Shown here: positions 4,101-15,426 of the stretch, piece by piece
How the letters are laid out: each line of letters opens with the position of its first letter
Numbering within the stretch: position 1 is the stretch's first letter
Source: Candidatus Saccharimonadota bacterium
GTDB lineage: Bacteria > Pseudomonadota > Alphaproteobacteria > CAJXXZ01 > 1604HC
Direction: 5' to 3'
Length of the DNA: 32,000 nucleotides
Assembly: GCF_008189525.1 (NCBI RefSeq)
Contig: NZ_CP043314.1
Location: 583,989 to 615,988 of the forward strand
Notes under the pieces: model-generated
The model's database searches: none
What the model was told of the DNA's origin: nothing
The model's input: the letters and a program-made list of their open reading frames with translations, nothing else
Made by a program: the position numbers and the translations under genes

Positions 4101-4231
4101 GGAAAATTGAGAATAAGCAATTTATTGAAAATGCTCCTACTGAAATCAAAGAGGAAATCAAGGAAAGAATTGCAAAACTAAAGCAAATTGTAGATAATTT
4201 TGATAAAGTGGAATTGATGTGGAGCAAGTAA
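1127..4231 (+). CDS. valS: valine--tRNA ligase (bacterial type, with several lineage-specific insertions)
   Basis: HIGH motif (PPPNITGKLHIGHALN) and KMSKS motif (GKKMSKSKNN) are present, as are DVLDTWFSS and ILFFWVARM. The C-terminal coiled-coil arm (FIENAPTEIKEEIKERIAKLKQ) is typical of bacterial ValRS. Confidence 0.95.
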   Translation: MNYSKSVTNMEKNFFSKADPFQKSSKYESKSRMVLPPPNITGKLHIGHALNAFVQDLKVRYERSFNNNKISWIPGTDHAGIATQIMVEKLLLESNIKKEDLGREKFLEKVWEWKEKYQDNIYDQLKKLGLELDWDQAKFTMDEDVQEAVSEAFCKFYKSGLIFKDNRIVHWDTKMQTAISDLEVRNEEVTGYMYYIKYYFENSLSEDSPKNTTEEPISENFVTVATTRPETMFGDKAIAVNPNDERYKNLIGRSAYIPMTDIKIPIISDERCDMEKGSGAVKITPAHDFLDFEIGKDHDLEVQNIIDKYGKLSGDSVPKSLQNIDRLEARKKIIKELKDKELLVKEEKIKHIIPHGDRSGSILEPMATKQWFLDMDSMASEAKEDIQNIAVFPQNYIKIFNHWMNNIQPWCISRQIWWGHQIPVWYFDDNHIYDLEKYNSYKKHGTNYLTSDYGQINKDNEQFSKNANLNHEFLNQVNFEKRFIVAKDIESARKIAKDIGIKNDSLTQETDVLDTWFSSALWPLVNSKEINSIFTNSLNQELNQKSTQELSKGLDPKNEEYPNECIITGSDILFFWVARMIMFCKFFSKKIPFKQIYLHGLVQDSFGKKMSKSKNNAMDPLDIIAEEGIDVLRYALLSSSVPGKNVKFGKQNIEKSRHFCIKIWNVFKFIKSNCSELFDVNIHTPENMEDNLKSGESSQTHDSQEIKKQNIPQEESSYNLPENLHPWNSFIVLKISDIRKTILDFISEWKIHEASNEIYKLIWEDFCSLYIEGCKSMLNSEHSMETKIVITESFKELIRILNPFMPVLSTEIFSLMENINPQTKAYNSNLTNKPCNTSCSFDSILDSILKKKSQKENQENETLIKSKTLDYIKEITEITDSIRYCKGVLGIENSIIYHVNIKQDHVGENIIQGSKSHLESNVEKDEVFYNIIEKLSGFKIHPSKEPKNDMTPYPLQQGVLYINFLDKDLNKLKNKIKKEKEKSYQDLSDAERKIENKQFIENAPTEIKEEIKERIAKLKQIVDNFDKVELMWSK

Positions 4232-4725
4232 TGATTTTCATAAAAAAAGCAACAAGTTTTATAAAAAATTTAACAAAGACAATAGTTAATAAGATAAATA
4301 CGAAGAATTTATTTTATAGCACAAACTCCAAACAAAACATATTCACAAAACTTCTACTAATATCTTCCCTTGTATTTATTCTTCAAGGATGTGAAGAAGA
4401 GAAACATATGAACTGCCCAAAAGGCAAATTAATAGGAATGACAAAAACAGAATTTATCAGTAAATATGGAGAAGGTGCAATAAAGCATCCGCTAGATAAC
4501 AACACATGGTTTTACGTAGATCTGATTTACATAAACAGTCTTTTTTCTAAGACTGCAAAAGGAAATTGGATGAGCGTAAGGATCAGCAATAACAAGATTG
4601 TAGAATTGAGAAAAGGCAAGCTTCCAAAGAAAATGAAAATGAAAGAACATAAAAAAGAAACATTAGTAAAGAAAAAGATTGCTGAAGAGCTGTTTGGATA
4701 TGTTGGATCTGCATCTTCATACTAA
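4231..4725 (+). CDS. bamE: BamE/SmpA-OmlA-like outer-membrane lipoprotein
   Basis: Signal peptide with lipobox ([14 protein letters not shown]). This is followed by [28 protein letters not shown], which resembles the SmpA_OmlA fold signature. The ATG at 4231 overlaps the valS TAA (TAATG). The ORF track's GTG at 4219 is an alternative start. Confidence 0.6.
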
Positions 4726-5447: not shown

Positions 5448-5506
5448 ACATAAACATTGTGTATAAGGGTATATTTTGGTAAGTTCTTTGCAAGATCTCA
5501 GGAGGG
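5448..5506 (+). promoter_or_regulatory. conserved 5' leader with Shine-Dalgarno (AGGAGGG) and a possible promoter of the LRR operon; mirrored at 17238-17295 on the minus strand
   Basis: About 60 nt upstream of the LRR1 start are almost identical to the sequence upstream of LRR4 (acataaacattgtgtataagggtatattttggtaagttctttgcaagatctcaggaggg vs acataacattgcgtataagagtatattttggtaagttctttgcaagatctcaggaggg). A weak sigma70-like TTGTGT-17-TAAGTT can be read. The promoter call is only an inference from conservation. Confidence 0.35.
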
Positions 5507-5727
5507 ATGATGACAAGTAATTTGGATAAATTTACATCTGGAGCTAGTGCAAAACAGAGTGCTAACGCTAACGGAAGTACGAACAAGGCAAGCAAATCAA
5601 GCACTATGAGCAAAATGAGGAGCATACTGAAGCTATGCACACTTGCACTTACAGCCCAACACACAAACACGGTTGACATCCCGAAACTACACGACATCCC
5701 TAACGAACATGGTTGTTTTTATCATTT
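5448..5727 (+). repeat. outer inverted repeat, left copy (leader + first ~74 codons of LRR1)
   Basis: Aligns to the reverse complement of 17018-17295 with only a handful of mismatches and a 1-nt indel in the leader. Homology stops abruptly after ...ggttgtttttatcattt. Confidence 0.9.
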
Positions 5728-7522
5728 GAAATATACAAAAAATGGAACTTTGGATTTATATGAAAGCGGATTGCCAAAATATGAAAGTGGATTGGTAGAT
5801 CTGTTAGATGGAATGGTAGAAATGCATAAATTCAGCAAATCTGACATAGAATTTGTTGCGTTTCTAAGACATGAAATAGAAAAAATCCTTGAAGTTGATT
5901 ACAATAAGGGACTAGAAAATGACTTCTTACTTAAATTTCCAAAAATAAAGGGCATAATAGGAGATGGTGAGCTTGAAGAAGAAGTTTTAGCTGAACATGG
6001 ATACTCAAAAGAAGATTATGACAGTACTATTACTGGGTATAATGTTAGAGATTCTTTGGATTGTTTGATTCGTGCCAAGAGAATTTGGGGCAAAATGATT
6101 GACCAATATGGGGAAGAAGATCTTAACAAAATCAAAGATTCAGTAAAAAATGCAAACCATGAATACGAATTAGGGAAAAAAACTCACCTAAACTTAAAAG
6201 TTATGCATAATTTGGTAGGATATGGATTAAGGCAAAGAGAAGCAGCTGGTATGCCAGATGAATCTACATTTTTGCAAAGATGGTACTCTGGAAGACATGC
6301 TTATGCAGACGATAAAAAGTCTAAAGTATCTATAAAACTAGATAATAGTGCGTTTATTTATCAAGTAATTCCTACTAAAGATTCAGGCACAGACTATGAG
6401 AAGAAACCTTGCGAACGTCATTCGAATATTATGTCTGTTTCATATTTCGATGCAAATACAAAAACAGACAATTTAGTTTGGGCTGGAGATGAAAGAGAAT
6501 TAAAAGAGAGAACCTGCAAAGTTGTTCAATACAACAGCTTCCCAGATTTAAGAAACTTGGATAGAATCGGTCCAATTTTCCAATATGCACTGGCATTGAG
6601 ATATGTTCATTTAGATATCACAAGCCCTGATCATTTGTATTGGATGAGATTTGCGCAAGACTTGGAATATGTGAAATTGAGAGTTACAGAATCAGACCAC
6701 CTAAAGCACTTGGGTTTGTTGAAAAACACACAATACTTAGGTATTACTAACATAAACGTAGATGATGCAATCATTCTTCCTGAAGAAATCGGCACATTAA
6801 GCAAATTAAGGTGCTTACACTTGAGTGGAGTTGAAGGATATCCAAACCAGATTCATGGAATTAAAGGATTACGTGAAATTAAGTTCGTGGAATCCGAAGG
6901 TAAGATAGATAAAAGCTTAAGTGATTTAGATAAATTGGTACATTTGGAGTTAAGTGGTAAGGTAGAATTGCCTGAAACTATAGAATTATGGGGGCTAGAA
7001 TCTCTTGTTGCACCTAGCGCAGATATAGAAAAAATGCCTAGATTTATCTGCCCTGAATTAAGGTATTTAGATTTAGGAAGTGCAAGATTAGACCATGCTT
7101 TAGAGCCTGGAGCAAAATTACCTATATTTGCAGGTGGTAATGAAATGACCAAAGCAGTAGATTTATCTGAATGCCCTGAGCTACGTGAAGTTTGGGTTGG
7201 AAACAGAATCAACGAAGTTGACGTGTCTGTGTTTAAGAGTTGCAAAAAGTTGATGTATATTGGACTTGGAGTTGATTTTAAGTACAGTATTAAATCAGGT
7301 TTGACTGAGTATGTTAAGAAAAATGAGCTATTCTTCGAGTTACTACATCCACTTAATGCAGGTGAAAAATTGCAATACAACTGTAAGATTCCAGGAGAAG
7401 ATGGTGAGTGGCTGAAGTTAAAGAGATACCAAGAAAACCAAAAGAGAAATTGGGTAAGAAATAAAAATGCTAGATATAAGCATATGGCAAAAATCTTGAA
7501 AGAAAATGGTCAGCTAAAATAG
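5507..7522 (+). CDS. leucine-rich-repeat protein, island paralog 1 (candidate secreted effector)
   Basis: 671-aa ORF, very long for an AT-rich genome. The C-terminal half has LxxLxxLxL repeats with a eukaryote-like LPEEIGxLxxLxxLxL unit (LPEEIGTLSKLRCLHLSG, LDKLVHLELSG, PELRYLDLGS, CPELREVWVGN). The N-terminal ~330 aa have no motif I recognise. The S/T/N/A-rich head is followed by the shared MSKMR.ILKLCTLALTAQHTNTVDIPKLHD module. Confidence 0.8.
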   Translation: MMTSNLDKFTSGASAKQSANANGSTNKASKSSTMSKMRSILKLCTLALTAQHTNTVDIPKLHDIPNEHGCFYHLKYTKNGTLDLYESGLPKYESGLVDLLDGMVEMHKFSKSDIEFVAFLRHEIEKILEVDYNKGLENDFLLKFPKIKGIIGDGELEEEVLAEHGYSKEDYDSTITGYNVRDSLDCLIRAKRIWGKMIDQYGEEDLNKIKDSVKNANHEYELGKKTHLNLKVMHNLVGYGLRQREAAGMPDESTFLQRWYSGRHAYADDKKSKVSIKLDNSAFIYQVIPTKDSGTDYEKKPCERHSNIMSVSYFDANTKTDNLVWAGDERELKERTCKVVQYNSFPDLRNLDRIGPIFQYALALRYVHLDITSPDHLYWMRFAQDLEYVKLRVTESDHLKHLGLLKNTQYLGITNINVDDAIILPEEIGTLSKLRCLHLSGVEGYPNQIHGIKGLREIKFVESEGKIDKSLSDLDKLVHLELSGKVELPETIELWGLESLVAPSADIEKMPRFICPELRYLDLGSARLDHALEPGAKLPIFAGGNEMTKAVDLSECPELREVWVGNRINEVDVSVFKSCKKLMYIGLGVDFKYSIKSGLTEYVKKNELFFELLHPLNAGEKLQYNCKIPGEDGEWLKLKRYQENQKRNWVRNKNARYKHMAKILKENGQLK

Positions 7523-10500
7523 ATGGAGGCAAAAAATATGATTACAAACAAATATAAAATGGGTAATATGAGCAAAATGAGGAACATACTGAAGCTATGC
7601 ACACTTGCACTTACAGCCCAACACACAAACACGGTTGACATCCCTAAACTACACGACACCCCTAACGAACATGGTTGTTTTTATCATTTTAAGTACGTTG
7701 AAGGAACTTTTAGCATAGAAAAGAATGAAACTTTTGAACTTTTAGAGCAAATGTATGAACAAAGTAAATACAGCATAGAGGATATTAAATTAATCGCATT
7801 TCTAAGACATGAACTAGAGAAGATACTTGAAATTGATTATAAAAAAGGATTGGAAAATGATTTCTTGCTAAAGTTTCCAAAAATAGAAGAAGTTATGGGA
7901 GATGGAGAATGGGAAGAGGAGGTTTTCCTAGGTCATGGATATTCAAAAGAAGAGTATAGACAAACTGATATAGTCTGTAACGTCAGAGATGCTATTTCTT
8001 ATATGGAATATACAAAAAGAATCTGGGGCAAAATTATAAAACAAGAAGATGAGGAAACTGCTAAAGAAATAAAAGATTCAGTAAAAAATACAAATCATGA
8101 ATGCGAGCTAGGTCAGAAAACCTATCTAAACTTAGGAGCTATGCTTAATTCCATAGGATATGGATTGAGACAGAGAAAAGAAGCTAGAATGCCAGGTGAA
8201 TCTACATTTTTGCAAAGGTGGTATTCTGGAAGACATGCTTATGAAGATGACAAAAAATCTAAAGTATCTATAAAGTTGGATAATAGCAAATTTATCTATC
8301 AGGGCATACCCACTAAAGATTCAGGAACTGACTATGAGAAAAAACCTATAGAATATAATAATTCTACAGATTTGATGTATTTATCCTATTTCGATGCAAA
8401 CACAAAAACAGATAATCTGGTATGGTGTGGAGATGAAAGAGAACTTAAGGAAAGAACCTGCAAAGTTGTTCAATACAATAGCTTTCCAGATTTGAGAAAC
8501 TTGGATAGGATAGGTCCAATTTTCCAATATGCACTGGCTTTAAGGTATGTTCATTTGGATATAACAAGCCCTGATCATTTGTATTGGATGAGATTCGCAC
8601 AAGATTTGGAATATGTGAAATTGCGTGTAAAAGAATCAGATCATCTAACACATTTAGGTTTGTTGAAAAATACACAATACCTTGGAATTACCAACATAAA
8701 CGTAGACGAAGCGATCGTTCTTCCTGAAGAAATCGGCACATTAAGCAAATTAAGGTGCTTACACTTGAGTGGAGTTGAAGGATATCCGAACCAGATTCAT
8801 GGAATAAAAGGATTACGTGAAATTAAGTTCGTGGAATCTGAAGGTAAAATTGATAAAAGTTTGAGCAACCTAGATAAACTTGTTCATTTAGAGCTAAGTG
8901 GAAAAGTAGAATTGCCTGAAACCATAGAACTATGGGAACTACAATCTCTAGTTGCACCTAGTGCAGACATAGAAAAGATGCCTAAGTTTATTTGCCCTGA
9001 ATTAAGATATTTGGATCTAGGAAGTGCAAGATTAGAGCATGCTTTAGAACCTGGAGCAAAATTGCCTATATTTGCAGGTGGTAATGAAATAACAAGCGTA
9101 TCTGACTTATCTGAATGTCCAGAATTAAGAGAAGTTTGGGTTGGAAACAGAATCAACGAAGTTGATGTTGAAGTGTTTAAGAATTGCAAGAAGTTGATGT
9201 ACATAGGATTAGGAGTTGATTTTAAATATAATATCAAGCAAGGATTAACTGAGTATGTTAAGAAAAATGAGCTATTCTTAGAGTTACTACATCCACTTAA
9301 TGCAGGAGAAAAACTTCAATACAGCTGTAAGATTCCAGGTGAAGATGGTGAATGGTTGAAATTGAAGAGATACCAAGAAAATCAAAAAAGAAATTGGGTA
9401 AGAAATAAAAATGCTAGATATAAGCATATGGCAAAAATCTTGAAAGAAAATGGTCAGCTAAAATAGATGGAGGCAAAAAATATGATTACAAACAAATATA
9501 AAATGGGTAATATGAGCAAAATGAGGAACATACTGAAATTGTGTACGCTTGCACTTACAGCCCAACACACAAACACGGTTGACATCCCGAAACTACATGA
9601 CACCCCTAACGAACATGGCTGTTTTTATCATTTTAAGTACGTTGAAGGAACATTGAATCTGGAACAGAATGAAACCTACGAACTTTTGGAAGGAATGTAT
9701 GAGCAAAGCAAATACAGCTCAGAAGATATAAAATTGATTGCCTTCTTAAGACACGAACTAGAAAAGATTCTTGAAGTTGATTATAAAAAGGGGTTAGAAA
9801 ATGACTTCTTGCTCAAGTTTCCTAAAATAGAGGAAGTTATGGGAGACGGAGAATGGGAAGAAGAAGTTCTACTAGGTCATGGATACTCAAAAGAAGATTA
9901 CAGACAAACTGTTATTACCTGTAATGTTAGAGATTCTTTTGATTGCTTGATTCGCTCAAAAAGGATCTGGGGCAAGATGATTGACCAATATGGAGAAGAG
10001 GATCTAAACAAAATAAAAGATTCAATAAAAAATGCAAACCATGAGCATGAATTTGGAAAGAAAACTCATCTTAATTTAAAAGTTATGCATAATTTGGTAG
10101 GATATGGATTAAGACAAAGAGAAGCAGCTAAAATGCCAGATGAATCTACATTTTTGCAAAGATGGTACTCTGGAAGACATGCTTATGAAGATGACAAAAA
10201 ATCTAAAGTATCTATAAAGTTAGATAACAGTGCATTTATTTATCAAGGCATCCCTACTAAAGATTCAGAAACTGATTATGAAAATAAACCTTGCGAACGT
10301 GATTCAAATATTATGTATGTATCATATTTCGATGCAAATACAAAAACAGACAATTTAGTTTGGGCTGGAGATGAAAGAGAATTAAAAGAGAGAACCTGCA
10401 AAGTTGTTCAATACAATAGTTTCCCCGATTTAAGAAACTTGGACAGAATCGGTCCTATTTTCCAATATGCATTGGCTTTAAGGTATGTACATTTGGATAT

Positions 10501-11330
10501 CACTAGCCCTGATCATTTGTACTGGATGAGATTTGCACAAGACTTAGAGTATGTGAAATTGAGAGTTACAGAATCAGACCACCTAAAGCACTTGGGTTTG
10601 TTAAAAAACACACAATACCTTGGAATTACCAACATAAACGTAGATGATGCAATCGTTCTTCCTGAAGAAATTGGTAGTTTAAGCAAATTAAGATGCTTAC
10701 ATTTAAGCGGAGTTGAAGGATATCCAAACCAGATCCATGGCATTAAGGGATTACGCGAAATTAAATTCGTAGAATCTGAAGGTAAGATAGACAAAAGCTT
10801 AAGTAATCTGGACAAGCTTGTTCACTTAGAACTAAGCGGTAAAGTAGAGTTGCCTGAAACCATAGAATTATGGGAACTACAATCTCTAGTTGCACCTAGT
10901 GCAGACATAGAGAAAATGCCCCAATTTATCTGCCCTGAATTAAGATACTTAGATCTAGGAAGTGCAAGATTAGAGCATGCTTTAGAACCTGGAGCAAAAT
11001 TGCCTATATTTGCAGGTGGTAATGAAATTACTAGCGTATCTGACTTGTCCGAATGTCCTGAGCTACGTGAAGTTTGGGTTGGAAACAGAATCAACGAAGT
11101 TGACGTGTCTGTATTTAAGAGTTGTAAGAAGTTGATGTATATTGGACTTGGAGTTGATTTTAAGTACAGTATTAAATCAGGTTTGACTGAGTATGTTAAG
11201 AAAAATGAGCTATTCTTCGAGTTACTACATCCACTTAATGCAGGTGAGAAATTGCAATACAACTGCAAGATTCCAGGAGAAGATGGTGAGTGGTTGAAAT
11301 TAAAGAGATACCAAGAAAACCAAAAGAGAA
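5606..11330 (+). repeat. tandem direct repeat of whole LRR genes, about 3 units (period 1944 bp between units 2 and 3, 1962 bp between units 1 and 2)
   Basis: The ATGAGCAAAATGAGG (MSKMR) anchor recurs at 5606, 7568 and 9512. The two inter-unit junctions (…gaaaatggtcagctaaaatagatggaggcaaaaaatatgattacaaac…) are identical. Homology ends near 11330, where unit 3 acquires a different tail. Confidence 0.9.
7523..9466 (+). CDS. leucine-rich-repeat protein, island paralog 2
   Basis: 647-aa ORF starting immediately after the TAG of paralog 1. GGAGG at 7525-7529 lies 8 nt upstream of the ATG at 7538, so 7538 is the more likely true start. The gene is highly similar to paralogs 1 and 3. Confidence 0.8.
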   Translation: MEAKNMITNKYKMGNMSKMRNILKLCTLALTAQHTNTVDIPKLHDTPNEHGCFYHFKYVEGTFSIEKNETFELLEQMYEQSKYSIEDIKLIAFLRHELEKILEIDYKKGLENDFLLKFPKIEEVMGDGEWEEEVFLGHGYSKEEYRQTDIVCNVRDAISYMEYTKRIWGKIIKQEDEETAKEIKDSVKNTNHECELGQKTYLNLGAMLNSIGYGLRQRKEARMPGESTFLQRWYSGRHAYEDDKKSKVSIKLDNSKFIYQGIPTKDSGTDYEKKPIEYNNSTDLMYLSYFDANTKTDNLVWCGDERELKERTCKVVQYNSFPDLRNLDRIGPIFQYALALRYVHLDITSPDHLYWMRFAQDLEYVKLRVKESDHLTHLGLLKNTQYLGITNINVDEAIVLPEEIGTLSKLRCLHLSGVEGYPNQIHGIKGLREIKFVESEGKIDKSLSNLDKLVHLELSGKVELPETIELWELQSLVAPSADIEKMPKFICPELRYLDLGSARLEHALEPGAKLPIFAGGNEITSVSDLSECPELREVWVGNRINEVDVEVFKNCKKLMYIGLGVDFKYNIKQGLTEYVKKNELFLELLHPLNAGEKLQYSCKIPGEDGEWLKLKRYQENQKRNWVRNKNARYKHMAKILKENGQLK

Positions 11331-11389
11331 GCTGGATGAGAAAAGAACACCCAAGGTACAAACGCATGGAAAAGATCTTTAAGGTTTAA
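9467..11389 (+). CDS. leucine-rich-repeat protein, island paralog 3 (mosaic of paralogs 1 and 2, unique C-terminal tail)
   Basis: 640-aa ORF with the same TAG-ATGGAGGCAAAAAATATG junction as at 7520-7540, so the likely true start is 9482. The sequence alternates between paralog-2-like and paralog-1-like blocks. The last ~20 aa (SWMRKEHPRYKRMEKIFKV) are unique. Confidence 0.8.
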   Translation: MEAKNMITNKYKMGNMSKMRNILKLCTLALTAQHTNTVDIPKLHDTPNEHGCFYHFKYVEGTLNLEQNETYELLEGMYEQSKYSSEDIKLIAFLRHELEKILEVDYKKGLENDFLLKFPKIEEVMGDGEWEEEVLLGHGYSKEDYRQTVITCNVRDSFDCLIRSKRIWGKMIDQYGEEDLNKIKDSIKNANHEHEFGKKTHLNLKVMHNLVGYGLRQREAAKMPDESTFLQRWYSGRHAYEDDKKSKVSIKLDNSAFIYQGIPTKDSETDYENKPCERDSNIMYVSYFDANTKTDNLVWAGDERELKERTCKVVQYNSFPDLRNLDRIGPIFQYALALRYVHLDITSPDHLYWMRFAQDLEYVKLRVTESDHLKHLGLLKNTQYLGITNINVDDAIVLPEEIGSLSKLRCLHLSGVEGYPNQIHGIKGLREIKFVESEGKIDKSLSNLDKLVHLELSGKVELPETIELWELQSLVAPSADIEKMPQFICPELRYLDLGSARLEHALEPGAKLPIFAGGNEITSVSDLSECPELREVWVGNRINEVDVSVFKSCKKLMYIGLGVDFKYSIKSGLTEYVKKNELFFELLHPLNAGEKLQYNCKIPGEDGEWLKLKRYQENQKRSWMRKEHPRYKRMEKIFKV

Positions 11390-11393
11390 TTCA

Positions 11394-12143
11394 GTGGGAG
11401 CAAGAGGAGATCGTTCTACTAAGGAAAAAAAAGAAAAAGCAAAGGAAGTAGAACAGCAGCAAGAAACCATAATTGATGAAGAACCCGTCGATCCAGATAT
11501 AGGAAGTATATGTCAGATATACGATGAGAAGTGGGGCGAGACGGTAAGGAACGTAAATGCAGGTACGTATCAGAAACTGATGACGCTTACAAATTTCGGT
11601 ACAATTGAAGAACTAGAAATAGAGGAAGAGCTGTCTGAGCCTTACACTATAAAAGGTAAGTGTTTCTTTTGGGAAGAGATATATGGCGACGTAGTTGGCA
11701 TGGAACCGAAGGTCACATTAGCAACAGAAGGTAAAACAAGATATTGGCACGGAGTTATAACTGAGTGGATCGAAGGTGGAACTGATCTTAAGGACGAAAG
11801 ATATTACTACGAATTCGAGATGCGACCAAAATTATGGTATAGGATGCAAAGCAGGCAAAACAAGATACATGTGTCGGATAAGGGCATGCGTGTTAAGGAA
11901 CTGGCAAGCAAACTAATCGAAGATGCGATGCAGAATAATAAAAATACGAAAGTAAAGTTTGAGCAAAAGTACGATGTTAATTTCGCAAAAGTGAAATCAG
12001 CTCAAAATAATCCAAATGAACCATTGATAGAATATGCTGTGCAATATGAAGAAACTACTTACGGTTTCTTCCAAAGATTACTAAGCAATCATGGTATATT
12101 TTATTATTATAAAGTCGAAGACAATTATTCCTGCCTAAGCTAA
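11394..12143 (+). pseudogene. vgrG: vgrG 5' fragment (gp27-like N-terminal ~240 codons only); truncated paralog, possibly still translated
   Basis: Residues ~33-240 are identical to residues ~28-235 of the full VgrG (12853-15426, minus strand) except for two positions. After ...GIFYYYK the sequence diverges and stops 9 codons later (VEDNYSCLS*). There is only a GTG start, 5 nt after the LRR3 stop, and no ATG. Confidence 0.75.
11489..12113 (+). repeat. inner inverted repeat, left copy (vgrG 5' region)
   Basis: Hand alignment to the reverse complement of 14722-15346 gives ~625 bp with about 31 mismatches and no indels seen. The first ~110 bp are identical. Confidence 0.9.
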
Positions 12144-12274
12144 ATTCCACTTATTTAAAAAATCTGATTACTAGAGCTTACAATTAAAAAGATTGATAAG
12201 TGATAAAACTACAAAAACATAAACATACAAAATCAGAATTATCAACAAAATATTTCAACTGTAGTAAGAAAATA

Positions 12275-12853
12275 CTAACCCATCTCTACGCCAGATTCAA
12301 AATAAGTTTTCTTGATTATTTTTCCTTCTGGATCATATACAGTCCATTGCCCATCTTTTAAATCTTCAAGATACATTCCAGACTCCATGATAGAACCTGT
12401 TTTCGGATAAAAAGTCACAGAAAAACCATTCAATTTATTTTTCTGGAAAATTTCTTGTTTTAACAATTCTCCTTTTTCGAAAACCAAAAACAGCCCGCTT
12501 TTCTCTCCATTTTTGTAATTACCCTTATTAGATATTCCATTTGCATCAAATACGTACACAGGTCCGTGCATCAAATCATCTTTATAATTTGTAATCATTA
12601 ATAAATTCCCAGATTCATATATTTCCATAGGCCCATTCATCTTATTACCAGAATAATTTGTGCGTCTCGTTATGACACTTTTCTCATAAAGAGTCTCTTC
12701 GCCTTCTTTTTCTCCAGCTTTGGAATAGTATCTCTGTACCAGATTTCCTTCTTTATCCCTTATTTCATTATAATCTAAATCACTTTGATCTGATTCTTTG
12801 ACTGCTCCACAAGGCTTATAAAAATCGACTATTTGTTCTTTTGTTATATTCAT
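12275..12853 (-). CDS. MORN-repeat-variant (YwqK-like) protein, translationally coupled to vgrG
   Basis: 192 aa with repeated units of G....Y..G...G of ~23 aa (NYSGNKMNGPMEIYESGNLL, NYKDDLMHGPVYVFDANGIS, NYKNGEKSGLFLVFEKGELL, FQKNKLNGFSVTFYPKTGSI, MYLEDLKDGQWTVYDPEGKI). The ATG overlaps the vgrG TAA by 1 nt (CTAATG at 12851-12856). Confidence 0.7.
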   Translation of the reverse strand: MNITKEQIVDFYKPCGAVKESDQSDLDYNEIRDKEGNLVQRYYSKAGEKEGEETLYEKSVITRRTNYSGNKMNGPMEIYESGNLLMITNYKDDLMHGPVYVFDANGISNKGNYKNGEKSGLFLVFEKGELLKQEIFQKNKLNGFSVTFYPKTGSIMESGMYLEDLKDGQWTVYDPEGKIIKKTYFESGVEMG

Positions 12854-15426
12854 TAGTTTATTTTTACCATTGAACCCTTTATATTAGCAATTGTGTCTGC
12901 CTTTAAATCCAATTTAGCTCCTTTTATAGACACTCCCGCTTTTCCTTCTATTGAAACTTGTCCCGAAGATTTCAAGCTTATATTAGCATTCGAAGAAATT
13001 TCTACAGATTTGCTAGATTCCATATTAATTCCATCTGCAGAAATTTTTATAGCACCTCCACTTATAGATATTGTATAATCACCAGACTTTATACTAATTG
13101 ACTTGTTCCCTTTTATATCAGATTTAAAGTCCCCACTTGATAATGAAATTGATAAATCACCTTTTTCTAATGTTGTACTCAAATTTCCTGAAGCCAATTT
13201 CATATCCAAATTACCTTTTTCTATTTCGTTAGAAATATTTCCTTCTGTGATTTTCTCTATCAAATCACCTTTGGAGATTTCTATTTTATGATGTGATTTC
13301 TCATCTCCCTTGGATAATAGAGAAATTTCCTTGCTCCCTTTTTCTAGTGTTATTTTATAATCACCCTGCTTTTCATCATCTTCAGCTAGAGTGCTTATTT
13401 CTATATTTCCATTATTTACCTGCGTATCAATATCCCCTTGTTTTACAAGCAAAATTTTGTCATTTTCTATTTCTGTAAGTAAATCTTTCTGTGCATGGAT
13501 ATAAATTTGCTCTTCTTCAGCTTTATCAGATATAGTAATTTCATTGAATCCAAAATCTTCTTTTTCATCATCAATTGTTTTGGTTCTCAATCCAGTTTTA
13601 TGAGAATCATCTGGCAAATCATATGGATTAGAATTTATGCTATTAAATACCGTACCTATAACAATAGGGTTGTCTGGATTTCCATTTTCATAAGTAACTA
13701 TTACTTCTTGTCCAACTCTAGGTATGTAAGAGCCTCCAAATCCAGCGCCTGATCCTCCCCATTGTGCGACTCTCACCCAGCAAGATCTTTCAGAATAAGA
13801 AAGCGTATCATCGTTGTCCCAGTTGAATTTTATTTTCACTCTACCTAAGTCATCAGTGTTGATTTCTGCATTATCAGGCCCTACCACAATAGCAGATTGA
13901 TATCCTAATATTTGTCTTTTTACTTTAGGAAGCACTTTAAAAACTGTATTCTCTTTCAGGAAAATAGATTCATTTACATAAGAATATTCAAACCCACTTA
14001 CTTGACCAGCTTTGCTTTTTATATTTTGTTGTTTGTACAAAGGGTCAGTTAACGACTCTTCTGCCATTTCTGGGTTTTTCAAAAACAGTTTATGCTTAGT
14101 TTTTCTAGCATAGTATTTATTATCTATGACTTCTTTTACCTGATCAGGAAGATCTCTTTTTGATGCTGCTTTAACATCTGATTTAATTTTTTTTATTTTA
14201 CTTTTCTTTTCAGTTTTGTAAACTTTTGTATGTTGATATAAATCTAGGGCAGATTTTAGCTCAAACAAATATCCAGGGCTAATCAAAAAATTACTTGTCA
14301 CAGACTTATATTGAGTTTTTACAGACTCTGATGAGTCAGTAATATGCTTTGCATGGTCCTCTGCAGCATCTGGGTCAGTTAATGTTTCGAAGTATTCATT
14401 ATTTTCAAAGCCTTCTTCAGCATTTCCCTCATGCTTTTTCTCTTCAACTTTTCCAAGTTTATCGAATTCTACCTCGATACCTGCTTTTTCGTAATTTCGA
14501 CCTCTTGCCTTTTGTTTTCCTATCGCATATCTGTTTACTTTTCCCCATGTATCCACAAAAGGGCTGTTTATTTCATCTGATCCCTGTTTAGATAAGAACA
14601 AGTTGTCATAATTAGCTTCGACCTTGTCATTATCACCTATTTCAATCTTACGTATGCCTGTAATAGGTTCCATTTTGGAAGTGTTATCCTTGAATATGAT
14701 TTTACTTCCATCTTTCGCATGTTTATAGTAATAAAATATACCATGATTGCTCAGTAACCTTTGAAAAAACTCATATGTAGTTTCTTCATATTGAACTGCA
14801 TATTCTATTAACGGTCCGTTTGGATTATTTTGAGCTGATTTCACTTTTGCGAAATTAACATCGTACTTTTGCTCAAATTTTACTTTCGTATTCTTGTTAT
14901 TCTGCATCGCATCTTCGATTAGTTTGCTTGCCAGCTCCTTAACACGCATGCCCTTATCCGACACATGTATCTTGTTTTGCCTGCTTTGCATCCTATACCA
15001 TAATTTTGGTCGCATCTCGAATTCGTAGTAATATCTTTCATCCTTAAGATCAGTTCCACCTTCGATCCACTCAGTTATAACTCCGTGCCAATATCTTGTT
15101 TTACCTTCTGTTGCCAATGTGACCTTCGGCTCCATACCAACTACGTCGCCATATATCTCTTCCCAAAAGAAACACTTACCTTTTATAGTATAAGGTTCCG
15201 ATAATTCTTCCTCTATCTCGAGTTCTTCAATTGTACCGAAATTTGTAAGCGTCATCAGTTTCTGATACGTACCTGCATTTACGTTCCTTACCGTCTCGCC
15301 CCACTTCTCATCGTATATCTGACATATACTTCCTATATCTGGATCGGTAGTTTGAGATTCAGCACTTTTCTGTGCAGAAACTTCACCGTCTTTAGTTTTC
15401 TTTTTCTCTTTATTTTGTTTAATCAT
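12853..15426 (-). CDS. vgrG: type VI secretion spike protein VgrG (gp27-like + gp5-like OB fold + beta-helix; no C-terminal effector domain evident)
   Basis: The classic VgrG core is present: GYQSAIVVGPDNAEINTDDLGRVKIKFNWDND....SCWVRVAQWGGSGAGFGGSYIPRVGQEVIVTYENGNPDNPIVIGTVFNS...PYDLPD..HKTGLRTKT......GFNEITISDKAEEEQIYIHAQKDL. It is followed by short K/S/G/D-rich beta-helix repeats (EKGDLSISLSSGDFKSDIKGNKSISIKSGDYTISISGG...) and ends in ...GSMVKIN. Confidence 0.92.
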   Translation of the reverse strand: MIKQNKEKKKTKDGEVSAQKSAESQTTDPDIGSICQIYDEKWGETVRNVNAGTYQKLMTLTNFGTIEELEIEEELSEPYTIKGKCFFWEEIYGDVVGMEPKVTLATEGKTRYWHGVITEWIEGGTDLKDERYYYEFEMRPKLWYRMQSRQNKIHVSDKGMRVKELASKLIEDAMQNNKNTKVKFEQKYDVNFAKVKSAQNNPNGPLIEYAVQYEETTYEFFQRLLSNHGIFYYYKHAKDGSKIIFKDNTSKMEPITGIRKIEIGDNDKVEANYDNLFLSKQGSDEINSPFVDTWGKVNRYAIGKQKARGRNYEKAGIEVEFDKLGKVEEKKHEGNAEEGFENNEYFETLTDPDAAEDHAKHITDSSESVKTQYKSVTSNFLISPGYLFELKSALDLYQHTKVYKTEKKSKIKKIKSDVKAASKRDLPDQVKEVIDNKYYARKTKHKLFLKNPEMAEESLTDPLYKQQNIKSKAGQVSGFEYSYVNESIFLKENTVFKVLPKVKRQILGYQSAIVVGPDNAEINTDDLGRVKIKFNWDNDDTLSYSERSCWVRVAQWGGSGAGFGGSYIPRVGQEVIVTYENGNPDNPIVIGTVFNSINSNPYDLPDDSHKTGLRTKTIDDEKEDFGFNEITISDKAEEEQIYIHAQKDLLTEIENDKILLVKQGDIDTQVNNGNIEISTLAEDDEKQGDYKITLEKGSKEISLLSKGDEKSHHKIEISKGDLIEKITEGNISNEIEKGNLDMKLASGNLSTTLEKGDLSISLSSGDFKSDIKGNKSISIKSGDYTISISGGAIKISADGINMESSKSVEISSNANISLKSSGQVSIEGKAGVSIKGAKLDLKADTIANIKGSMVKIN
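14722..15346 (-). repeat. inner inverted repeat, right copy (5' region of intact vgrG)
   Basis: Reverse complement of 11489-12113; see the left copy. Confidence 0.9.

Follow-up and report, generated by a model that had tools for sequence, protein, structure and literature searches.

Why should four leucine-rich repeat (LRR) genes that stand beside vgrG in a highly reduced endosymbiont genome carry nearly the same stretch of coding DNA close to their starts? The question is raised by a 32,000-nt stretch of contig NZ_CP043314.1 (positions 583,989 to 615,988 of the forward strand; hereafter the window), which is 100% identical over 19,466 bp to OY490516.1 (assembly GCA_960610765.1) from Candidatus Nesciobacter abundans. 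This bacterium, an alphaproteobacterium placed in Holosporales or Rickettsiales, lives as an obligate endosymbiont in the diplonemid Diplonema japonicum and has a genome of 616 kb. The shared stretch, here called the head, is probably the conserved, translated front part of a species-restricted, vgrG-linked family of LRR proteins, kept alike by gene conversion together with purifying selection and serving its carriers as a common address. The presence of LRR genes beside vgrG in N. abundans is already published. In the accessible parts of George et al. (bioRxiv 10.1101/719211; later Curr Biol 2020), LRR-domain proteins are described upstream and downstream of the T6SS (type VI secretion system) VgrG in Nesciobacter and Cytomitobacter, and a YwqK-family protein is said to follow VgrG. 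In the same parts of the preprint we found no mention of a shared head, of a shared leader, of gene conversion, of a vgrG fragment or of an inverted-repeat layout.

The only vgrG island of the window consists of two convergent operons, LRR1-LRR2-LRR3-vgrG' on the + strand and LRR4-vgrG-MORN on the - strand, vgrG' being a truncated copy of vgrG. The head comprises 129 nt (43 amino acids, aa) from MSKMR to FYH(F/L)KY. A repeat search of the window returned exactly four copies, each in the 5' region of an LRR gene, and a base comparison placed them as follows.

5606-5734, + strand: head copy 1 (LRR1), 43 codons, MSKMRSILKLCTLALTAQHTNTVDIPKLHDIPNEHGCFYHLKY
7568-7696, + strand: head copy 2 (LRR2)
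9512-9640, + strand: head copy 3 (LRR3)
17010-17138, - strand: head copy 4 (LRR4)

Nucleotide identity is 91-96% among the + strand copies and 97% for the inverted LRR4 copy. A 38-nt core, GCACTTACAGCCCAACACACAAACACGGTTGACATCCC, is invariant across all four copies, was counted exactly four times in the window and was matched in none of 100 shuffles. Similarity to LRR4 at the DNA level ends directly after the FYHFKY codons. Within the head, positions 27, 30, 33 and 36 separate LRR1 and LRR2 from LRR3 and LRR4, and position 78 separates LRR1 and LRR3 from LRR2 and LRR4. A preliminary description of this DNA had placed the copies at 5606, 7568, 9512 and (minus strand) 17138, and had noted both the abrupt end of homology and a patchy sharing of synonymous variants. 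The repeat search, the count of the core and the differing groupings of sites agree with it on each of these points. It had also called the head an N-terminal module of about 45 aa. A conserved module in the N-terminal part is indeed present, but it measures 43 aa and does not lie at the extreme N-terminus, the annotated starts being 33 or 10 aa further upstream. The roughly 43 codons 3' of the head (5735-5860, 7697-7820 and 9641-9765) form the most variable stretch of LRR1-3, with proportions of synonymous and non-synonymous differences (pS and pN) of 0.61-0.84 and 0.11-0.38, respectively. The junction between conserved and hypervariable sequence is sharp at the head end even between these close paralogs.

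What is being conserved, a peptide, an RNA or only the DNA? Thirteen of the 129 head nucleotides vary, and ten of these differences are synonymous and three non-synonymous (binomial p = 1.7e-5, with 26 of the 129 sites counted as synonymous). LRR1 alone carries the three non-synonymous changes, and no copy has lost its open reading frame. An RNA element was ruled out: the region 5448-5740 has a folding z-score of +0.59 against shuffles, and the only Rfam matches in the window are two tRNAs. Given the synonymous excess, the open frames and the lack of an RNA signal, the conserved object is therefore a peptide and not an RNA. As judged from the pattern of substitutions, the head is a translated segment held by purifying selection, and the preliminary description was right to treat it as a conserved N-terminal module.

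Selection on the peptide does not explain why the DNA itself has stayed so similar, and here the sequence preceding the head is informative.

5453-5506, + strand: LRR1 5' leader, 54 nt, with -10-like hexamers TATAAG/TATATT and an AGGAGG Shine-Dalgarno sequence; common to LRR4; part of inverted repeat I2
5507-5605, + strand: LRR1 pre-head, 33 aa rich in S, T, N, A and K, MMTSNLDKFTSGASAKQSANANGSTNKASKSST; shared only with LRR4
17139-17291, - strand: LRR4 pre-head and conserved leader, from the base comparison; part of I2

Over leader and pre-head, LRR1 and LRR4 differ by 3 mismatches in 153 nt and are 100% identical from about 5468 to 5603, in line with the near-identity reported earlier for this segment. 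The pre-head of LRR1 matches 17139-17237 with 99% nucleotide identity and one synonymous difference. The LRR4 leader copy holds a promoter-like site, TTTACA-18-TATATT. The starts that have both Shine-Dalgarno support and NCBI annotation lie 33 aa upstream of the head in LRR1 and LRR4 (MMTSN, after AGGAGG), and those of LRR2 and LRR3 lie 10 aa upstream (MITNKYKMGN, with GGAGG 8 nt before), again in agreement with the NCBI annotation. The common leader would provide both operons with the same promoter-proximal region and ribosome-binding site.

Divergence was estimated by the Nei-Gojobori method as synonymous (dS) and non-synonymous (dN) substitutions per site. Over all pairs, the head has a dS of 0.12-0.46 and a dN of 0-0.03, and its dS against LRR4 is 0.17-0.33. 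The bodies of LRR1-3 differ from one another by a dS of 0.68-0.93 and a dN of 0.07-0.11; against LRR4 their dS is saturated and their dN is about 0.86. Beyond the leader and pre-head of LRR1 and LRR4, the head is the only segment that LRR1-3 still share with LRR4 at the DNA level. A head dS of 0.17-0.33 beside a saturated body is beyond the reach of purifying selection, and DNA must therefore have been copied between the paralogs. The informative sites of the head are mutually incompatible. At least three conversion signals can be told apart: a recent one over the leader and pre-head of LRR1 and LRR4, one at positions 27-36 (LRR3 and LRR4 against LRR1 and LRR2) and one at position 78. The tract over leader and pre-head is younger than that over the head because it is nearly identical. 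The repeat shared by vgrG and vgrG' shows the same homogenisation (dS 0.29). On these substitution patterns the head, the leader and the N-terminal part of vgrG have undergone repeated gene conversion, and the ongoing conversion of the head suspected at the outset is borne out.

The base composition of these repeats is also unusual. The heads have a GC content at third codon positions (GC3) of 0.47-0.49 and the vgrG repeat (11489-12113 and 14722-15346) has one of 0.38, compared with 0.23-0.28 in other genes. Windows of 43 codons with high GC3 (at least 20 of 43) number 188, or 2.2% of all. As many as 155 of the 188 fall in repeats, 70 in the 5' ends of the four LRR genes and 85 in the vgrG repeat. 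Gene conversion with a GC bias, acting in a genome that is reduced and AT-rich, may have left this rise in GC3.

With conversion so prominent, the head could be conserved at the DNA level only, either as a recombination substrate for inversion or cassette exchange or as the remnant of a recent duplication, its peptide having no function. The layout of the island lends itself to such a reading. Inverted repeat I2, comprising leader and head, pairs 5453-5733 with 17011-17291 (281 nt, 96% identity), and inverted repeat I1, from the N-terminal part of vgrG, pairs 11489-12113 with 14722-15346 (625 nt, 95% identity). I1 is nested inside I2, giving a palindrome-like order of conserved head, divergent LRR body and conserved vgrG part; moreover, the non-coding leader has been homogenised too, and GC3 is raised in the repeats. 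However, the ratio of ten synonymous to three non-synonymous changes shows selection on protein sequence, a single recent duplication cannot yield a head dS of 0.2-0.3 beside a saturated body dS, and no inversion difference is seen between the window and the OY490516.1 locus. We therefore regard conservation of the DNA only as very unlikely.

If the peptide is what matters, the next question is what it is attached to.

5507-7522, + strand: LRR1, open reading frame (ORF) of 671 aa, annotated at 671 aa in OY490516.1; Pfam LRR_14, LRR_4 and LRR_8 below cut-off
7538-9466, + strand: LRR2, 642 aa, start MITNKYKMGN with GGAGG 8 nt before it; protein P0002, named leucine-rich repeat domain-containing protein
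9482-11389, + strand: LRR3, ORF of 635 aa with annotated start
15432-17237, - strand: LRR4, 601 aa, divergent paralog; LRR region modelled at a pLDDT (predicted local distance difference test) of 70-88

The four proteins share one architecture, consisting of head, helical middle region, LRR domain and basic tail. Protein identity to LRR1 is 83% for LRR2, 88% for LRR3 and 36% for LRR4, and the alignment is colinear. Without the head, LRR1 and LRR4 still align colinearly end to end, with 23% identity over 568 columns (BLASTP E = 3e-20). The statement that these two bodies are barely alignable was thus too strong, and since they align end to end with the same domain order, LRR1 and LRR4 are therefore paralogs and not polymorphic cargo. 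The notion of a uniform head on divergent cargo fails at this point. A profile of the four proteins matches solved LRR structures (4u08_A, E = 3.9e-20, positions 387-496), and Pfam LRR_4 scores 27.3 bits on LRR4 against a cut-off of 27. LRR membership is accordingly seen in the C-terminal half, from the profile matches and from an AlphaFold solenoid with a pLDDT of 70-88. The supplement of George et al. lists only two LRR_4 hits for the whole N. abundans genome. Taken together, LRR1-4 are paralogs of one species-restricted family and not carriers of unrelated C-terminal domains.

The head itself resembles no named domain. A Pfam search with the N-terminal 296-324 aa and with the head alone gave no hit at E values up to 10, NCBIfam and PADLOC offered no family for it, and all hits among the PDB sequence profiles fell within the LRR region. 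On this point the first reading of the sequence was right. In the full LRR proteins there was no Pfam hit to PAAR (PF05488) or RHS, and a regular expression for the prePAAR motif (AARxxDxxxH) was negative in all four. For FIX, a region of about 80 aa, the evidence is indirect: HMMER searches with head plus middle region against 1.84 billion proteins, a library that should include FIX carriers, returned self matches only. No match to the MIX motif was obtained with a regular expression run on the four proteins, even in the relaxed form RxGhhY; MIX is defined by a central hRxGhhYhh flanked by shhPhR and hh[F/Y]SxxxW[S/T] (PMC10025392).

These results bear on the proposal to see in the head a new domain of general use for T6SS delivery or loading, comparable to MIX, FIX, Rhs and PAAR heads and grafted onto unrelated cargo. 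It is true that the head lies in the N-terminal part, has sharp limits and has been homogenised among vgrG-adjacent genes, and that no known domain accounts for it. Its cargo, however, is one paralog family, the MIX, prePAAR and PAAR motifs and Pfam PAAR/RHS hits are absent, and its distribution is very narrow. An exhaustive HMMER search of 1.84 billion representative proteins with a profile of head and middle region recovered only the family's own proteins, P0002 and P0003. No homology to head or middle region was detected in that search in the LRR proteins of Cytomitobacter. A word-indexed search of 5.8 billion proteins with the full-length LRR profile gave three clusters, all from N. abundans; with the 76-aa head as query the word index gave no match, a result of no weight because short queries evidently escape it. 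Scans with the head peptide produced only pattern matches, none of them confirmed by tblastn, in 185,579 species genomes (from which the source genome is apparently absent or masked) and in JGI metagenomes. A protein search with VgrG led to a single, unrelated Logan contig. Finally, tblastn on 80 vgrG loci of other bacteria, including metagenome-assembled genomes of Holosporaceae and Odyssella, found neither a head nor an LRR1/LRR4 homolog, upstream or elsewhere, at any of them. A diverged 43-aa peptide would escape these searches, and the 80 loci come from lineages other than Cytomitobacter. A general delivery domain is therefore quite unlikely.

As far as these searches reach, the head appears to be a species-private tag confined to the four LRR genes, rather than a delivery domain that is both new and widespread. 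The preliminary description had suggested a profile search for further heads, and only proteins of N. abundans itself came back. Membership in a new family like MIX, FIX or the Rhs and PAAR heads is consequently unsupported, those families spanning many effectors and taxa. The same description had held that it would be contradicted by a head that is confined to LRR1-4 and is not linked to vgrG in any relative. The outcome goes part of the way: no relative carries the head, and linkage to vgrG is clear at the locus itself.

What kind of peptide is the head? AlphaFold models of full-length LRR4 and of LRR2 residues 1-356 show a helix over MSKMRNILKLCTLALTAQH, spanning MSKMR to AQH, followed by coil. 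The head has a pLDDT of 26-40 and is not packed against the body in either model, and the pre-head of LRR4 is modelled at a pLDDT below 30. Instead of a folded domain, the head is thus probably a flexible N-terminal appendage, made of the basic helix MSKMRNILKLCTLALTAQH and a coil in which His, Cys and Asp are frequent. In its second half, the His, Cys and Asp residues include the pattern H-x9-H-x5-H-x-C-x2-H. A zinc-binding or PAAR-like role was considered for this pattern and set aside, as only composition speaks for it and 43 aa are too short for a PAAR fold.

A basic helix followed by a hydrophobic stretch also recalls a Sec-type signal peptide, perhaps with an extended n-region, in which MSKMRN would be the n-region, ILKLCTLAL the h-region and the cleavage site would lie between LTA and QH. 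The LRR proteins would then reach the periplasm or outer membrane, or leave the cell through a reduced secretin of the type II secretion system or type IV pili, and not through the T6SS. Several features fit: a basic stretch precedes a hydrophobic one of 9-11 residues (Kyte-Doolittle 1.9-2.2), LTA resembles a small-x-small site, and the nearest solved LRR relatives are the Leptospira LRR proteins LIC11098, LIC10831 and LIC12759. In addition, the genome retains secABDEFY, gspD and pilQ, and a gene for a 628-aa secretin (PF00263) is found some 10 kb upstream of LRR1, beyond the window and about 2.3 kb before its start (OY490516.1 locus, 1-142).

Judged feature by feature, the n-region and LTA followed by Q are acceptable, but the h-region is short, weakly hydrophobic and interrupted by a lysine, and starts at residue 17 or 40. 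The best 12-residue Kyte-Doolittle mean of the stretch ILKLCTLALTA is 1.4-1.6, whereas genuine N-termini of lipoproteins and membrane proteins in the window reach 2.5-3.1. In LRR1 and LRR4 the stretch begins at residue 40; no Shine-Dalgarno sequence precedes the internal ATG, whereas AGGAGG or GGAGG precedes the upstream starts. Regular expressions for a lipobox ([LVI][ASTVI][GAS]C) and for a twin-arginine translocation (Tat) motif were negative in all four LRR proteins. Furthermore, the 26 residues past the putative cleavage site are equally conserved (5 synonymous against 2 non-synonymous changes). A Sec signal is unlikely, although it deserves some weight. An internal positive control for an export signal of this organism is found at 4219-4725 (+ strand), where a protein of 164-168 aa without Pfam family begins with a long basic stretch and continues with a lipoprotein signal of the typical kind.

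The pre-head and head together might instead be a sorting peptide that acts in the host cell after delivery, for example a mitochondrial presequence-like one. In D. japonicum the symbiont sits against the host's one mitochondrion or is embedded in it (PMC13462478), and George et al. speculate on an interaction between effectors and the mitochondrion. Residues 1-56 of LRR1 and LRR4 hold seven Lys or Arg and one Asp, are rich in S, T, A and N and are predicted to be helical. This case rests on composition, however, and the helix has a modest hydrophobic moment (0.25 over 20 residues). The pre-heads of LRR2 and LRR3 are short and different, and the conserved His/Cys-rich second half of the head would be left unexplained. 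We consider such a sorting role highly improbable.

The remaining evidence on function comes from the genes next to the head carriers.

11394-12143, + strand: vgrG', 249 aa, truncated copy of the N-terminal part of vgrG; Pfam Phage_GPD, E = 1.3e-18; repeat arm 11489-12113
12275-12853, - strand: MORN_2/YwqK-like protein, 192 aa; Pfam MORN_2; its start overlaps the vgrG stop
12853-15426, - strand: full-length VgrG/TssI, 857 aa; TIGR03361 and Pfam; repeat arm 14722-15346

VgrG passes TIGR03361 with 305.5 bits (cut-off 186.35), and its Phage_GPD, Phage_base_V and Gp5_trimer_C domains are all above the Pfam cut-offs. LRR4 stops 5 nt before the vgrG start and LRR3 stops 4 nt before vgrG', so that the reported linkage of head genes to vgrG holds at this locus. 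In the supplement of George et al., the T6SS genes of N. abundans are tssBCEFGIKLM, vgrG and an iglG/PAAR-like gene. The same authors report a system without recognisable Hcp (TssD) and TssJ genes.

A common-address role seems most likely because the head alone is kept by all four paralogs and every copy is co-transcribed with, or lies next to, vgrG. Two processes together keep the copies alike. Short tracts are repeatedly converted from one operon's 5' end to the other's and from one tandem copy to another, which produces similar synonymous sites and mosaic variants, and purifying selection acts on the encoded head peptide. Concerted evolution of the same kind extends over the first 625 nt of vgrG and vgrG'. 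The head may stay similar enough to recombine because it has a function common to the four paralogs. Our best guess is that it would recruit the LRR proteins to a spike complex of VgrG, MORN and PAAR-like proteins, by which they would be exported into the host and there bind through their LRR domains. This specific role in T6SS loading is possible but doubtful, and should be kept apart from the broader picture of a conserved common address, which we hold to be probable.

Several observations weigh against these readings. What ties the head to VgrG, or to secretion at all, would be its genetic linkage (gaps of 4-5 nt), and genes for T6SS cargo effectors usually lie downstream of vgrG rather than upstream. 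Conservation within LRR1-3 is not peculiar to the head, since other 43-codon windows have a pN of 0.00 or a low pS, and the head's dN/dS (ω) of about 0.08 is no lower than the values for the body (0.08-0.14). The searches found no head homolog, so that comparison lends support to no particular function. Only four sequences underlie the two AlphaFold models, which are of low confidence, and GC-biased gene conversion in bacteria is itself debated.

The truncated vgrG' presents a puzzle of its own. Over 207 codons it differs from vgrG by a dS of 0.29 and a dN of 0.005, and a dN/dS of about 0.02 is a sign of strong purifying selection on an apparent fragment. The non-synonymous differences amount to 2.5, against about 70 expected under neutral decay for the whole divergence time. 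Past 12113 the tail of vgrG' has decayed, with a 99-nt deletion, a frameshifting 10-nt deletion and loss of similarity. A plain pseudogene was considered and rejected: the low dN/dS speaks against long neutral decay of the 625-nt core, though the tail has decayed. The pattern fits a very recent truncation, a functional fragment, or two arms that alternate as the 5' part of a complete vgrG. The third option amounts to an inversion of 12114-14721, which the geometry permits, although the orientation is the same in the window and in the OY490516.1 locus.

It is conceivable that the head is a lineage-specific VgrG-loading tag and that the nested repeats form a recombinational flip-flop inverting 12114-14721, but we rate this combination as a long shot. 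If true, it would re-attach the single C-terminal part of VgrG, together with MORN, to either the LRR4 or the LRR1-3 operon, and a 616-kb endosymbiont would alternate which set of host-directed LRR effectors is coupled to its spike. Such a switch would explain the strong purifying selection on the truncated vgrG copy.

Other features of the island concern VgrG and its neighbours. A VgrG gene followed by a MORN_2/YwqK-like gene recurs in many unrelated vgrG loci (L004 2645-3163, L019 4636-5154, L040 2083-2556 and L082 2396-3079). In some of them a small Cys-rich protein of about 127 aa, possibly PAAR-like, follows MORN (L004 3163-3546, L019 5154-5537 and L040 2558-2944). This suggests a conserved VgrG-MORN(-PAAR-like) module, for which a role as adaptor or immunity protein is a candidate. 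Residues 705-855 of VgrG, a C-terminal extension, weakly match the Francisella-type TssI/VgrG model NF041249 (E = 1.6e-8, below cut-off). This match and the iglG/PAAR gene hint at a Francisella-like system (T6SSii), a type that, if true, could explain the reported absence of Hcp and TssJ. The LRR4-vgrG-MORN operon starts directly downstream of a tRNA gene, with about 70 nt between that gene and the conserved LRR4 leader.

17359-17431, - strand: tRNA-Gln (anticodon ttg)

The remainder of the window is occupied by housekeeping genes, namely valS, rpoZ, xth, dnaQ-like, rnd-like, ndk, tkt, der and bamB-like genes.

As it stands, the locus is chiefly of value because it shows concerted evolution so cleanly in a strongly reduced genome, where conversion, purifying selection and raised GC3 meet on the conserved flanks of a putative effector family. 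The analysis also puts right the view that the locus holds a secretion domain that is new and widespread. The nested inverted-repeat layout with its conserved vgrG fragment is possibly the more interesting side observation. Should the head prove to be an export or loading tag, it would give a handle on how a T6SS without recognisable Hcp and TssJ delivers host-directed LRR proteins in an unculturable endosymbiont of a protist.

The head resembles MIX and FIX in being a short N-terminal region that is common to several vgrG-linked putative effectors and sharply set off from the business domain. MIX and FIX are spread across many taxa and fused to unrelated toxin domains, FIX being about 80 aa long (Salomon 2014; Jana 2019; PMC10025392). 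The LRR heads, in contrast, lack the MIX motif, have no homolog found outside one species, and are carried by paralogs with the same body.

Effectors of Salmonella pathogenicity island 2 (SPI-2), including the LRR proteins SspH1, SspH2 and SlrP, reportedly share a common N-terminal translocation region. The likeness is that several effectors of one genome, some of them LRR proteins, are said to share a secretion-directing N-terminus thought to have spread by recombination. The SPI-2 region reportedly differs in serving a type III secretion system, in its length of about 140 aa with a WEK(I/M)xxFF motif, and in having carriers with unrelated C-termini.

In polymorphic toxin systems (Zhang et al. 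2012, PMC3482391), as in LRR1-4, a conserved 5' part stands beside a divergent 3' part and recombination proceeds via the conserved part. LRR1-4 have no toxin domain, no immunity gene after each variant and no promoter-less C-terminal cassettes, however, and their variable parts are homologous to one another. The vgrG-flanking LRR proteins of diplonemid endosymbionts, as described by George et al., are the same genes as those treated here.

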